Part shown: positions 31,011 to 35,305 of the stretch, one piece after another | Layout of the letters: each line of letters begins with the position of its first letter | How positions within the stretch are numbered: position 1 is the stretch's first letter | Source of the DNA: Conchiformibius sp. | GTDB taxonomy: Bacteria > Pseudomonadota > Gammaproteobacteria > Burkholderiales > Neisseriaceae | Direction: 5' to 3' | Length of the DNA stretch: 64,000 nucleotides | Assembly (NCBI GenBank): GCA_029984035.1 | Contig: JASBYJ010000001.1 | Coordinates: forward strand, 213,534 to 277,533 | Notes under the pieces: model-generated | What the model was told of the DNA's origin: nothing | Databases searched by the model: none | Seen by the model: only the letters and a program-made list of their open reading frames with translations | Translations under genes and position numbers: made by a program

Positions 31011-32990
31011 ATGTTTTACAGCAAAGTCAAAGTCCGCATGGACGAGCGGGCGATTGTGTCGCTTGACGGCAAACTGAACCGCGTGCTGGAAGCGGGAGAA
31101 CATACCGTTTGGCATTTCGGGAAAGTATGCAGCTATCAAATCAACAATATGGGTGATTTGAACGTCAGCTGGACAGGTGTGGACGCGGCTTTGCGTTTCC
31201 AACGTGCTGTGGCGGAACGCTGTTGGCAGATTTTTGATTGCGACGATGACAGCGTAACCGTGGTTTGGCACAAGTATTTGCCTGCGCAAGTGATTCCGGC
31301 AGGTAGCAGCCGTGCGTTTTGGCGGCCGGAAAGTGGTGATTTGCAACATTGCCGCATTTTGAAAAACGAATTTTGGCTGCCTGAAAACGTTCAGGCAGCT
31401 TTGTTCCGACAACACCGATTAGACAGAAACCTATTAAAAATCCGTATTGCGCCGCATGAAAAACTGATTGTCAGCGTAAACGGCGAATTGGCGCGGATAT
31501 TGGACGAAGGGGAATATGTGCTGCATTTGCCTGCCGACGGTAGTGTGCAAACCCAATTGTGCAATACTGCGGAAAATCTGGAAGTGGATTGGTGCGGTGT
31601 TGCAGAGACATTGCGTTTTCAGCGCGAGCAAGCGCAACGGTATTGGCATATCATCGACAGCCCTGTCGGTAGCGACACGTTGGTGTGGCATGAACGTTAT
31701 CTGCGTCCGAAAATCGTACCGAGCGGAGAAAGCCACGCCTTTTGGCTGCCGGAACAAGGTCATATAGAAAGTTGCGTTTTAGCGCAGCATGATTTCGAGT
31801 TGCCTGAAAGTGTCGCCGCTGCTTTGTTGAAACAATCACAGTTTGAGCCGCCTTTGCGCCGATACAAAGTCCAAACCCATGAAAAAATGTTGATTACCGT
31901 GCGCGGTGGCTTGCAGCGTGTTTATTCTGAAGGTGAATATTTGTTGAGACTGCATGACAGCGTACAGGTTTTGTTTGCGGATACCCGTCAGCCCGAATAT
32001 ACAGATATCAAACAGCTGCAGATATGGGAGCTGAAGCAGCCTGAATTGGTAGCGCAACATTTTGACTTCGTTCAGGCGAAAGCTGACGAATTGGTGATGT
32101 ATTCGGTGGGGGATATGTTGGCGGGCTGGGTAGCGCCTGAGTGTGCCGCCTATTTTTGGAAGCAGCCTGCACGTGAAGTATCTTTTAAATACATTGATTT
32201 GAAAAAAGGTTTACAAATTGATGACGAAACGGTGGCGCAATTGAAAGCCGTACGTTTTTGGGAAAACGGTTTTGCCGATATCGTTTACCCTGTGGAAGTG
32301 CCGCCACAGCATCAAGGTTTGGTGTATTTGGACCAGGTGTTGCAACCGGTTTTGGAAACCGGTAATTACCATTATTGGCGGCTCTCCCGCCAAGTTCGTG
32401 CAGAAGTGGTGGATTTGCGCTGGCAAAGCTGTGAAATTTCGGGGCAGGAGTTGTTGAGCGAAGATAAAGTTACTTTGCGTATTAATGCGGTGTGCAATTA
32501 CCGTATCAGCGATGCGCCGATGTGGTTTGCGCAGCACCGGCGTCCGGACGATTATCTGTACCGCGAATTACAGTTTGCTGTCCGTGCCGTGGTAGGAAGT
32601 AAAAACATCGATGCCTTGTTGGCCGATAAGCATGCGATGGACGAAGAGTTGACGGCATTAATGAAAGGCAAAAGCCTGAGCGGCATTGAAATCGGCAGCG
32701 TGGGTGTGAAAGACATTATTCTACCGGGCGAAATCCGCTCTATTTTGACGCGCGTGGTTGAAGCGGAAAAATCGGCACAGGCAAATAATATTCGCCGTCG
32801 TGAAGAGACGGCGGCAACCCGTTCTCTGCTGAACACTGCACGGGTGATGGAGGAAAACCCGACTGCTTTGCGTTTGAAAGAGTTAGAAACGTTGGAAAAA
32901 GTAACCGAAAAAATCGATAAAATTTCGGTATACGGCGGTTTGGACGGGGTATTGAAAGGATTGATTAACATCCAAAATCCGAAAGGCTGA
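31011..32990 (+). CDS. SPFH/band-7 (stomatin/HflKC/flotillin superfamily) domain protein with three degenerate N-terminal SPFH-like tandem repeats and no transmembrane anchor
   Basis: 659 aa from the ATG at 31011 (RBS GGAGAATAAAATG). C-terminal ~230 aa are a classic band-7 domain. N-terminal ~430 aa contain three ~130-aa repeats aligning to each other and to the start of the SPFH domain (IVSLDGKLNRVLEAGEHTVW / IVSVNGELARILDEGEYVLH / LITVRGGLQRVYSEGEYLLR / LVYLDQVLQPVLETGNYHYW; also SWTGVDAALRFQRAVAERCWQIFD / DWCGVAETLRFQREQAQRYWHIID). Confidence 0.8.
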   Translation: MFYSKVKVRMDERAIVSLDGKLNRVLEAGEHTVWHFGKVCSYQINNMGDLNVSWTGVDAALRFQRAVAERCWQIFDCDDDSVTVVWHKYLPAQVIPAGSSRAFWRPESGDLQHCRILKNEFWLPENVQAALFRQHRLDRNLLKIRIAPHEKLIVSVNGELARILDEGEYVLHLPADGSVQTQLCNTAENLEVDWCGVAETLRFQREQAQRYWHIIDSPVGSDTLVWHERYLRPKIVPSGESHAFWLPEQGHIESCVLAQHDFELPESVAAALLKQSQFEPPLRRYKVQTHEKMLITVRGGLQRVYSEGEYLLRLHDSVQVLFADTRQPEYTDIKQLQIWELKQPELVAQHFDFVQAKADELVMYSVGDMLAGWVAPECAAYFWKQPAREVSFKYIDLKKGLQIDDETVAQLKAVRFWENGFADIVYPVEVPPQHQGLVYLDQVLQPVLETGNYHYWRLSRQVRAEVVDLRWQSCEISGQELLSEDKVTLRINAVCNYRISDAPMWFAQHRRPDDYLYRELQFAVRAVVGSKNIDALLADKHAMDEELTALMKGKSLSGIEIGSVGVKDIILPGEIRSILTRVVEAEKSAQANNIRRREETAATRSLLNTARVMEENPTALRLKELETLEKVTEKIDKISVYGGLDGVLKGLINIQNPKG

Positions 32991-33304
32991 TGTTCAGGCA
33001 GCCTGAAACGGGGTCTGAATATCTAGCTGTTTTAAATATTTATTAAAAACAATTAATTGGATGAGGCTGTTTTGGTTAATCATAAGTATTTAATAAGCAT
33101 GATTTAAAGAGTGTATTTGGGATGGTATTGAAAACTATAAAAGCTGTTTCAAGCGCGGCAAAGTAGTAACCGTTTCATTTTGAAAAATTAGGAGAACTGT
33201 TTCTTTACTGCTTATTTGGAACTTTTAAAATTAAGCAGATAATTGATTGGGTATTCGGTTTTAGATACCCAATCTTTTCTTTCTTAAATAAGGCTGCCTG
33301 AAAT

Positions 33305-35305
33305 ATGCAAGACCCATTCATTTATCTGGAAAACCTCCATAGCAACGAAACCCGCCGATTTATTGCCGATGCGCACGGTAAAACCGTATCACGTTTTGGA
33401 AATTGTCCCCAATTCAACCTATTGAAACAAGATATTACGCAACAGCTGCAAGACGAAAAACAAATTCCGTTTTGTCAAGAACACCGCGCCAGAATGTACC
33501 ACTTCCACCAATCTGCCGAATACCCGAAAGGCGTATATCGCGTATGCAGCGCTTCATCCTACCGAAGCGGGCTGCCTGAATGGGAAATCTTGTTTGATGT
33601 AGCGGCGTTTGACAGTATTTTGGGCGGTGATGTGTATTTGGAAGGTGCGTCGCATTACGTGGAACAACCCGAACGGGTGTTGCTGACGTTGAGCGATGCG
33701 GGTAGCGATGCGGCTTATACGGTCGAATTTGATGTGGCGGCACGAAGCATTGTCGAAGGCGGCTTTCATTTTCCGTTGGGTAAAAACCATATTGCTTGGC
33801 GCGATGAAAACAGTGTGTGGGTTTGCCCTGCATGGGACGAACGCCAGCTGACGGTTGCAGGTTATCCGCGCCAAGTGTGGCTGTTGCGGCGCGGCCAAAG
33901 TTTCGAAGAAGCCCAACCGGTCTATCAAATGGACAAGAGCGGTGTGATGGTGAACGCATGGCGTTATTTGGACGGTCAGGGCGCCCCGATTGATTTGATT
34001 GAAGCGGCCACCGGTTTTTTCAGTAAAGACTATTTCCAAGCGGATGCCGACGGCCATGTTTTGCCGCTTAATCTGCCGAAGGATTGCGAGATTGTCGGTT
34101 ATCTGGCAGGGCAATTAATGATACATCTCAAAAGCGTTTGGCAACGGGCAAACCACAGCTACCCGGCCGGTGCTCTGCTTGCCGTGAAGTTAAGCAGAGG
34201 CGAACTGGGAGCGGCAGAAGTGCTGTTTGCACCCTCCGAAACACAGGCTTTGGAAAGCGTGGAAACCAGTAAACGCTTTGTTCTGGCAAGTATTTTAGAC
34301 AATGTTTCAGGCAGCCTGAAAGCGTGGAAATGGGAACAGGGCAGTTGGCAGGAGCAGATTTTGCCCGATTTGCCCAAAGGCGCGTTGGAAATAGTCGACC
34401 AACCTTGGGGCGGCGATGTGGTTTGTTTGACCGCCAGTGATTTCATTACACCGCTCACACTGTTCGCACTGGATTTAAACGTGATGGAATTATCCGTTTT
34501 GCGCCGCCAGCCCAAACAGTTTGATGCAGACGGTATAGAAGTGCGCCGGCATGTCGCCGTTTCTGCCGATGGAACGCATATTCCTTATTACCATGTCGGA
34601 AAACGCCACGCCCCCGATACCCCGACACTGGTTTACGCCTATGGCGGATTTGCCGTTCCCGAATTGCCGCACTATCTGGGCAGCATAGGGCGGCATTGGC
34701 TTGCACAAGGCAAGTCCTTTGTACTGGCCAACATACGCGGCGGAGGCGAGTTTCCGCACTGGCATCGGGCTGCACAAAAAGAAAACAAATTCAAAAGCGT
34801 AGATGACTTGCTTGCCGTAGTTGCCGACTTGCACCGACGCGGCTACAGCCGACCCGATAAAACCGCCATTCAAGGCGGCAGCAACGGAGGCTTGATTGCC
34901 GCAGCGGCATTTGTACGAGAGCCGCAACGCATAGGCGCACTGGTGTGCGAAGTGCCGCTAACCGATATGCTGCGCTATACCGAATTATCCGCCGGCGCAA
35001 GCTGGATAGAAGAATACGGCGACCCTGAGCTGCCTGAAGAACGCGCATATTTGCAAAAATTGTCGCCCTACCATAATCTTCAGGCAGCCTGCCGCTATCC
35101 GCCTGCGCTGATAACCACCAGCCTGAGCGATGACCGCGTTCATCCCGCCCATGCTTTGAAGTTTTACGCCAAACTGCACGCCGTCTCGCCGCAAAGTTGG
35201 CTTTACGCCCCCGATAACGGCGGACATACGGGCAGCGGCACGCAGGAGCAGACTGCCGAAGAAATGGCTTGTATATTGGTGTTTCTGAATGAGATGTTAA
35301 AGTAA
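33305..35305 (+). CDS. S9A-family serine peptidase (prolyl oligopeptidase / prolyl endopeptidase-like)
   Basis: 666 aa. N-terminal beta-propeller region and C-terminal alpha/beta-hydrolase with the catalytic Ser motif GGSNGGLIAAAAF, then Asp/His region (SLSDDRVHPAHALKFYAKL). Confidence 0.88.
   Translation: MQDPFIYLENLHSNETRRFIADAHGKTVSRFGNCPQFNLLKQDITQQLQDEKQIPFCQEHRARMYHFHQSAEYPKGVYRVCSASSYRSGLPEWEILFDVAAFDSILGGDVYLEGASHYVEQPERVLLTLSDAGSDAAYTVEFDVAARSIVEGGFHFPLGKNHIAWRDENSVWVCPAWDERQLTVAGYPRQVWLLRRGQSFEEAQPVYQMDKSGVMVNAWRYLDGQGAPIDLIEAATGFFSKDYFQADADGHVLPLNLPKDCEIVGYLAGQLMIHLKSVWQRANHSYPAGALLAVKLSRGELGAAEVLFAPSETQALESVETSKRFVLASILDNVSGSLKAWKWEQGSWQEQILPDLPKGALEIVDQPWGGDVVCLTASDFITPLTLFALDLNVMELSVLRRQPKQFDADGIEVRRHVAVSADGTHIPYYHVGKRHAPDTPTLVYAYGGFAVPELPHYLGSIGRHWLAQGKSFVLANIRGGGEFPHWHRAAQKENKFKSVDDLLAVVADLHRRGYSRPDKTAIQGGSNGGLIAAAAFVREPQRIGALVCEVPLTDMLRYTELSAGASWIEEYGDPELPEERAYLQKLSPYHNLQAACRYPPALITTSLSDDRVHPAHALKFYAKLHAVSPQSWLYAPDNGGHTGSGTQEQTAEEMACILVFLNEMLK

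Follow-up and report, generated by a model that had tools for sequence, protein, structure and literature searches.

SPFH proteins are generally viewed as scaffolds in membranes, where they enclose proteases or channels. SPFH/Band-7 and Ro/TROVE modules were reportedly described by Burroughs and Aravind as potential scaffolding cofactors that work with cognate non-coding RNAs. Wang et al. (10.1101/312249, citing Burroughs and Aravind 2016, NAR 44:8525) place a tRNA-like RNA designated b7a-tRNA beside a Band-7 protein and RtcB, describe the pairing predicted in 2016 as experimentally unvalidated, and propose that b7a-tRNA is functionally redundant with the tRNA-like Y RNA YrlA. Here, we analyze a 64,000-nucleotide stretch of Conchiformibius sp. 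DNA (Neisseriaceae; contig JASBYJ010000001.1, positions 213,534 to 277,533; hereafter, the window) in which a gene for a 659-amino-acid Band-7 protein is preceded on the same strand by three tRNA-like genes (Table 1). An earlier sequence-only reading considered the Band-7 gene together with the peptidase gene that follows it. The conserved partner is the tRNA-like array upstream (30415–30714), which lies just outside the segment covered by that reading.

Several described systems resemble this locus. In Anabaena PCC 7120, a trcR mutation derepresses alr0739-alr0740 (“slipin family protein”) alongside rtcB and the trn tRNA array; the derepression of alr0740 is 42-fold, and the gene is induced by translation inhibitors (PMC10272220). 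The SPFH protein PaFlo8 of P. aeruginosa lies within the rtc locus (PMC13086221). Rsr (Ro60/TROVE) and YrlA, encoded in rsr-yrlBA-rtcBA operons, likewise combine a protein scaffold with a tRNA-mimicking non-coding RNA in an RtcB context, and Wang et al. propose that Rsr-YrlA and Band-7/b7a-tRNA are functionally interchangeable (10.1101/312249). The window protein differs from Rsr in having an SPFH rather than a TROVE/vWA fold, and no TROVE domain was found in the two proteins scanned. Identification of the tRNA-like RNAs as YrlA or another Y RNA was rejected because the YrlA model reaches 28.8 bits, well short of its gathering score of 69. The stomatin/slipin family (human stomatin 16-mer, PH1511, QmcA) is also among the closest known systems. 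Likeness to the vault ribonucleoprotein is confined to the architecture, in which repeats precede an SPFH-like shoulder and a helix and small RNAs are added; assignment to the major vault protein family was rejected when tests for the vault repeat and shoulder profiles and for the repeat fold gave no support.

The closest match is the Band-7/b7a-tRNA kind. The window locus shares with it a soluble SPFH/Band-7 protein, a same-strand tRNA-like gene immediately upstream, and orthology of the protein to Band-7 proteins encoded between rtcR and rtcB/rtcA. It differs in having three N-terminal modules rather than one, in having three tRNA-like genes and a minihelix, and in lacking linkage to RtcB, RtcA, or RtcR, none of which is encoded within the 64 kb; in Neisseria, the unit is free-standing. 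Membership in this kind is well supported. The locus is therefore not categorically new, since the kind is already known from comparative genomics. Our reading of the region from about 30283 to 33007 is that it constitutes a self-contained transcription unit, in which a promoter is followed by three tRNA-like RNAs and, after a structured leader, by a single gene for a cytoplasmic Band-7 protein. This protein would form an oligomeric, soluble, stomatin-like assembly and scaffold the tRNA-like RNAs as part of a response to damaged RNA or to translational stress. We assign this reading, taken jointly with its functional part, a probability of roughly 0.6.

Pfam recognizes a single domain in the protein, Band_7 (amino acids 429–599; E 2e-22), located at the C-terminal end. 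The 423 amino acids that precede the SPFH domain comprise three mutually homologous modules of about 140 amino acids each. In segment-versus-segment BLASTP comparisons, module 1 (amino acids 1–142) and module 2 (143–288) are 41% identical over 141 amino acids (E 4e-37), modules 2 and 3 are 45% identical over the first 38 amino acids (E 5e-8), and module 1 is 33% identical to the start of the SPFH region over 33 amino acids (E 0.005). An AlphaFold2 model computed from a 10-sequence alignment has a mean predicted local distance difference test (pLDDT) score of 83.7, which rises to about 90 over amino acids 1–470. In this model, a pattern of five strands, two helices, five more strands, and a final helix occurs three times over and is followed by the SPFH domain and then by long helices at 572–615 and 619–637.

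Profile comparisons resolved the repeat further. Modules were cut from 87 loci, and a hidden Markov model of the window-clade modules recognizes 137 of 138 candidate pieces. Alignment of 124 distinct modules from these loci with the SPFH region by hhalign (Prob 96%, E 4.9e-9) matches module positions 9–65 to SPFH-region positions 4–58 (approximately amino acids 428–482). The two halves of the module also match one another (Prob 94.6%, E 6.5e-8) and, taken singly, the SPFH start (Prob 95–97%); reversed and column-shuffled controls remained below 1%. Each module is thus composed of two units of about 70 amino acids, both homologous to the ~55 residues with which the SPFH region begins, and the N-terminal 423 amino acids therefore represent six such units derived from the first SPFH beta strands. 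The sequence-only reading had recognized the terminal Band-7 domain and the three modules and had posited that the N-terminal lobe of SPFH was in part duplicated serially; these proposals are supported, with the duplicated unit refined to ~70 amino acids in six copies. When the N-terminal 428 amino acids were searched alone against 1.8 billion representatives, only 23 matches were obtained, all of them members or fragments of this family, so that no other family was revealed. Neither the Band-7 protein nor the S9 protein encoded downstream matched PADLOC defense models at E ≤ 0.1; PHROGs yielded only a weak SPFH “lipoprotein” match, and no copies were found in viral contigs.

At the other end of the protein, amino acids 565–654 are nearly invariant across genera (alignment A1) and align with the C-terminal helix region of stomatin; this segment is presumed to mediate oligomerization. 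The closest sequences with solved structures are stomatin cages such as 9oh9, which contains 16 chains (E 1.8e-19 over amino acids 467–653).

The RNA genes upstream depart from ordinary tRNA genes in several respects. The three tRNA-likes fold as cloverleaves. Their acceptor stems are 14–29% GC, CCA is not encoded, and two of the three have abnormal anticodon arms; the two genuine tRNA genes in the window have acceptor stems of 86% GC and encode CCA. tRNA-like 1 has a 9-base-pair anticodon stem, an extra arm, and an AT-rich acceptor stem (29% GC). The acceptor stem of tRNA-like 2 (TTTGAAT/ATTCAAA) is 14% GC. In the minimum-free-energy fold of tRNA-like 3, the anticodon arm consists of a 7-base-pair stem and a 4-nt loop, an abnormality that prevents this RNA from decoding. 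The T-arm-like minihelix between tRNA-likes 2 and 3 occupies the equivalent place in Conchiformibius steedae and in locus L110, which encodes a two-module ortholog described below.

The anticodons of these RNAs vary on a constant background. One scaffold (TTTGAATTAGCTCA...ATTCAAA) carries TAC in the window (30506–30579), TCC in C. steedae (L005 5502–5575), GTA in L110 (4520–4595), and CAT in Neisseria (L001 5450–5525). Among 29 Neisseria loci, each of the three loops has 2–3 alleles that occur in mixed combinations (CAACGGG, CATAGGG, and CATTAGG in loop 1; ATTTCAT, ATTTTAT, and ATTGGGT in loop 2); in Neisseria metagenomes, where such alleles occur, the surrounding RNA is almost invariant. With so few alleles per loop, the variation represents allelic diversity; the term hypervariable was considered for these loops and rejected. 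Two explanations would fit this variation: an anticodon that does not decode may be free of constraint, or the loops may be under diversifying selection, for instance as baits for anticodon nucleases.

These features bear on the possibility that the tRNA-likes function as spare tRNAs, like those of stress-induced tRNA arrays, and take the place of damaged or depleted ones, with a separate role for the Band-7 protein. Several copies do combine a canonical 7-nt loop with an encoded CCA (the third Neisseria copy, with CAT, and the L110 copy, with GTA), the second tRNA-like in the window reaches 64.6 bits, and the Anabaena trn array belongs to the same regulon. However, the acceptor stems are AT-rich or truncated to 3–4 base pairs, many copies have “anticodons” of 2 or 4 bases or elongated anticodon stems, and position 33 is not U in the first Neisseria copy. 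Moreover, the anticodon differs among orthologous copies, which would be intolerable for decoding of a fixed amino acid. We consider it unlikely that these RNAs serve as spare tRNAs.

The scaffolding reading gains from the distribution of relatives. A genome-wide scan identified at least 558, whose N-terminal extensions fall into three length classes of ~146, 275–300, and 427 amino acids that correspond to one, two, and three modules. One module is present in most Betaproteobacteria; two are found in Cyanobacteria, Vitreoscilla, and Snodgrassella; and three occur in the window. Module 3 is the only one retained in single-module relatives. One to three tRNA-likes lie on the same strand, 220–800 nt upstream, in most of the betaproteobacterial and cyanobacterial loci inspected. 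At rtcR-type loci in which ARAGORN returned nothing, the Rfam tRNA model recovered acceptor-truncated copies (3–4 base pairs) in four of seven tested. The counts of tRNA-likes vary with the detector used (ARAGORN or Rfam). Equal numbers of modules and tRNA-likes in Neisseria, Conchiformibius, and the window (3:3) and in many cyanobacteria (2:2) prompted the idea that each module serves one tRNA-like. That idea was rejected, as one-module proteins are often accompanied by two tRNA-likes and the two-module ortholog in L110 by one with the minihelix.

To define the conserved neighbors, all open reading frames of the 87 loci were clustered, and each family was confirmed by Pfam. RtcB (PF01139; E 2.5e-128) is encoded directly downstream of the Band-7 gene in 29 of the 87 loci, RtcR (RtcR plus sigma-54 activator domains) divergently upstream in 21, and RtcA nearby in 10. 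The tRNA-like and Band-7 pair thus often lies between rtcR and rtcB/rtcA in betaproteobacterial and cyanobacterial relatives. In Snodgrassella, which belongs to the same order as the window organism, the arrangement is rtcR, tRNA-like, Band-7 gene with two modules, and rtcB. By tblastn, the window protein is 41–59% identical to Band-7 proteins flanked by RtcR, RtcB, and RtcA; over module 3 plus SPFH, it is 45–59% identical to those encoded between rtcR and rtcB/rtcA.

In 17 of 27 cyanobacterial loci, the 300 nt that precede the Band-7 gene contain an exact match to the published, operator-like TrcR motif TGTAGTAT. The octamer precedes the Band-7 start by 40–300 nt, as at L043 3609, L054 1307, and L073 3892 (loci L043–L086), and it occurs 23 times overall in 226 kb against about 7 expected. 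Its location links the family to the TrcR regulon, which contains the putative ortholog alr0740.

Other variations were noted at these loci. A 365-amino-acid AAA ATPase is encoded downstream in 7 of the 87 loci, which also have long tRNA arrays; it replaces RtcB after the Band-7 gene in L013, L014, L017, L022, L024, L027, and L031. At two rtcR-type loci, the tmRNA model matches weakly, with its tRNA-like part, between the Band-7 gene and rtcB (L032 5372–5437; L041 5330–5395); these matches may represent a second tRNA-like element downstream of the gene. In some betaproteobacterial loci, 5–15 ordinary-looking tRNA genes stand directly upstream of the tRNA-like and Band-7 pair (L012 1866–3460, L022 1919–3722, L025 212–3634, L017, L021, L027, and L030).

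Within the Neisseriaceae, the tRNA-likes and the gene travel in one piece. The closest orthologs are a C. steedae “slipin family protein” (80% identity) and proteins of the Neisseria sicca group (52%). BLASTN comparison of the window with C. steedae confines their similarity to the segment that opens with the tRNA-likes and closes with the Band-7 gene; the flanks differ. In Neisseria, a 2.94-kb block that is 96–98% identical among copies occupies at least three unrelated genomic contexts (L001 5125–8066, L002/L004 5132–8067, and L009 3134–6070). It contains, in order, a promoter-like site (TTGTTT-17 nt-TACAAT), three tRNA-likes, a leader, the gene, and a strong terminator hairpin, and its promoter-like start corresponds in place to the promoter-like site of the window. 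Neither an integrase nor obvious terminal repeats were seen at the Neisseria cassette. The Neisseriaceae variant is characterized by three modules, three tRNA-likes with a T-arm minihelix, and decoupling from rtcB, and in Neisseria it is a mobile, self-contained cassette. A natural variant, P0005 (L110 5001–6563), is a 520-amino-acid ortholog that lacks exactly one repeat unit, from the middle of module 1 to the middle of module 2. Its sequence is consistent with loss of the unit by unequal recombination between modules. L110 has one tRNA-like with an encoded CCA, plus the minihelix.

Because tRNA genes are common targets of integration, the tRNA-likes could be decayed or duplicated tRNA genes that mark the integration sites of islands, with the Band-7 gene as cargo and no RNA–protein link. 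The differing genomic contexts of the cassette and the long upstream arrays of ordinary-looking tRNA genes in L012, L022, and L025 would fit this explanation. Against it, the tRNA-likes are internal to the mobile unit, as the Neisseria block begins ~170 nt before the first of them; their orientation and distance are constant across phyla; no integrase is adjacent; and the same arrangement is found in stable rtcR-rtcB operons. That the tRNA-likes are integration scars appears very unlikely.

The protein might alternatively act as a classical scaffold of membrane microdomains or as a modulator of FtsH, a known partner of SPFH proteins, with peripheral attachment through the N-terminal beta modules. 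The protein does belong to the stomatin subfamily, and NCBIfam returns weak matches to HflK/HflC. These fall well below threshold (35.6 bits against a cut-off of 159). The C. steedae cassette immediately follows ftsJ-ftsH (L005 3213–5240 and 6001–7986); this adjacency is kept in neither the window, Neisseria, nor L110 and is probably coincidental. Profile and fold identify the SPFH domain and the C-terminal helical region of the superfamily, but the N-terminal membrane anchor is missing: no transmembrane segment was found in the protein, and its most hydrophobic 19-residue Kyte–Doolittle window reaches only 1.03, which leads us to conclude, as had been claimed earlier, that it has no anchor. 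No NfeD-type operon partner is present, the upstream neighbor being the tRNA-like array and the downstream S9 protein lacking an NfeD domain; an NfeD cluster is likewise absent among the conserved neighbors of relatives. With a conserved context of RNA repair rather than the envelope, a membrane role is highly improbable.

The scaffolding reading suggests the following model. The SPFH domain, together with the C-terminal helices that are almost unchanged among homologs, would build a homo-oligomeric ring or dome like those of stomatin, HflK/C, flotillin, and the vault protein, and the six N-terminal beta units, as copies of the first SPFH strands, would lengthen the wall of this soluble assembly. 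The assembly may hold or present the non-decoding tRNA-like RNAs, which could serve as cofactors, decoys, or baits when anticodon nucleases damage tRNAs or rRNA or when translation is blocked. RtcB ligase would cooperate in most lineages, and the pair would stand alone in this lineage of Neisseriaceae. One can go further and imagine a soluble, vault-like stomatin cage, its wall made of duplicated SPFH units, that packages or displays non-decoding tRNA mimics with strain-diversifying anticodon loops. The mimics would bait anticodon nucleases or ribotoxins, and the cage would amount to an RtcB-independent protection particle that spreads as a 2.9-kb cassette in Neisseriaceae. We regard this extended version as doubtful.

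Several observations weigh against the model. RtcB was not found in the window by tblastn, nor beside the Neisseria and Conchiformibius copies, and rtcA and rtcR are also absent from the window; the link to repair is therefore indirect in this lineage. In cyanobacteria, the TrcR-type promoter motif sits between the tRNA-likes and the Band-7 gene, so that co-transcription is not general. The Anabaena gene alr0740 is a putative ortholog of this family. Deletion of PaFlo8 was without phenotype in standard assays (PMC13086221). The number of modules does not follow the number of tRNA-likes. The modules are acidic to neutral (isoelectric points of 5.2–7.0), which is atypical of RNA-binding surfaces. 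Finally, both expression of the tRNA-likes and their binding by the protein are predictions.

If the model is correct, the SPFH fold would be put to a new use here, in a soluble assembly devoted to tRNA-like RNAs, and bacteria would have a counterpart of the vault and Ro–Y RNA particles, which still await an explanation. The version in Neisseriaceae offers a convenient test case, as it consists of one gene and its RNAs in a compact, self-contained cassette decoupled from rtcB, resides in naturally transformable oral commensals, and varies naturally in the number of its modules (3 or 2) and in its anticodon loops.

The layout of the unit is summarized in Table 1. The 31-nt element ahead of the tRNA-likes is 97% identical to C. 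steedae L005 5371–5401 and is also found in L110 and the Neisseria cassettes; its 12-nt core, GCGGCGTGCCGT, repeats directly beyond the tRNA-like array (30761–30772; direct repeat D4). Islands of the leader such as CACGGCAAAAYGGTTTRGGC are common to the window, C. steedae, Conchiformibius sp., and Neisseria. The closing stem of the leader finishes ~30 nt ahead of the Band-7 start codon, and a weak terminator-like site lies at 30730–30743. Alignment of the leader with L005 and L007, RNAalifold analysis, and six-frame translation revealed no conserved small open reading frame, with stops differing in all frames; the leader may act as a regulatory 5′ untranslated region. The Band-7 open reading frame spans 30870–32990, and the ATG at 31011 is the conserved start that aligns with all homologs.

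The DNA uptake sequence (DUS) motif GCTGCCTGAA, which we take to be the Simonsiella-type dialect, occurs 123 times in the window compared to 0.25 expected. An overlapping inverted pair just past the Band-7 stop codon probably marks the end of the unit. A second inverted pair lies within the Band-7 coding sequence, as the sequence-only reading had noted. This pair (TGG CTG CCT GAA ... GTT CAG GCA GCC) encodes the conserved peptide WLPENVQAA, so that a repeated protein motif doubles as an uptake-sequence pair.

Table 1 Features of the Band-7 locus and its downstream neighbor (window coordinates)
Feature	Position	Strand	Basis or remark
Upstream terminator hairpin	30238–30274		Directly before the promoter-like −10
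Promoter-like extended −10 (TGtTAGAAT)	30283..30291	+	Putative left end of unit, from consensus match only
Conserved 31-nt element	30346..30376	+	~40 nt 5′ of the first tRNA-like
tRNA-like 1	30415..30503	+	ARAGORN; Rfam tRNA 34.2 bits; minimum-free-energy cloverleaf
tRNA-like 2	30506..30579	+	Rfam tRNA 64.6 bits; canonical-looking cloverleaf, anticodon TAC
T-arm-like minihelix (GCGG-TTCGACT-CCGC)	30600..30614	+	Between tRNA-likes 2 and 3; read from sequence
tRNA-like 3	30641..30714	+	ARAGORN “tRNA-???”; Rfam tRNA 51.2 bits, loop insertion
GC-rich leader, 296 nt	30715..31010	+	Conserved islands; long closing stem 30730–30745 / 30963–30978 (inverted repeat I1)
Band-7 protein gene	31011..32990	+	659 amino acids; stop 32988–32990 (open reading frame list)
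N-terminal module 1	31011..31424	+	Amino acids 1–138; two ~70-amino-acid beta units
N-terminal module 2	31425..31847	+	Amino acids 139–279; single-module AlphaFold2 model, pLDDT 91.9
N-terminal module 3	31848..32279	+	Amino acids 280–423; most diverged copy
SPFH/Band_7 domain proper	32280..32723	+	Amino acids 424–571
C-terminal long helices and stop codon	32724..32990	+	Amino acids 572–659; alignment A1, AlphaFold2
Inverted DUS pair inside Band-7 coding sequence	31376–31385 / 31390–31399	+ / −	Motif scan and translation
Overlapping inverted DUS pair	32993..33007		3 nt past the Band-7 stop codon
S9 prolyl-oligopeptidase-family gene	33305..35305	+	666 amino acids (open reading frame list); adjacent, not part of the system

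The gene that follows the unit encodes an S9 peptidase, as had been recognized from the sequence. Pfam detects Peptidase_S9_N (PF02897, 66 bits) and Peptidase_S9 (PF00326, 128 bits), and the serine motif GGSNGG at amino acid 524 completes the family’s set of propeller, hydrolase domain, and GxSxGG motif. The sequence-only reading suggested that the two genes may form a non-canonical module. In such a pair, the soluble SPFH protein would act as a regulator or scaffold of the peptidase, comparable to SPFH-NfeD or HflK/C-FtsH. The proposal draws on the adjacency of the genes on the same strand, on the classical pairing of SPFH proteins with proteases, and on the presence of QmcA-YbbJ and HflK/C-FtsH among the structural matches. 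It is close to refuted: tblastn with the S9 protein as query gave no homolog at 111 related loci with 4–6 kb flanks, and unrelated genes lie downstream of the 52–80% identical orthologs in C. steedae and Neisseria and of the two-module variant P0005. In the window, the two genes are set apart by 315 nt of AT-rich spacer that contains promoter-like sites and a hairpin, and a DUS pair comes right after the Band-7 stop. The module was accordingly rejected for want of linkage among homologs; of the earlier interpretation, the repeats and the missing anchor stand and the protease link falls, which corrects an appealing but wrong annotation by adjacency.

Two further observations concern the region downstream. 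The spacer hairpin (33245–33274) has an 11-base-pair stem followed by a T run and is situated 3′ of two promoter-like sites and 30 nt before the S9 start codon; it may be a 5′ untranslated region element of the peptidase gene. Beyond that gene, positions 35660–39472 contain three paralogous genes for periplasmic solute-binding-like lipoproteins (35660–36508, 36678–37550, and 38573–39472). The GC content of this region is 34–37%, compared to ~49% elsewhere, and it may be a horizontally acquired block.

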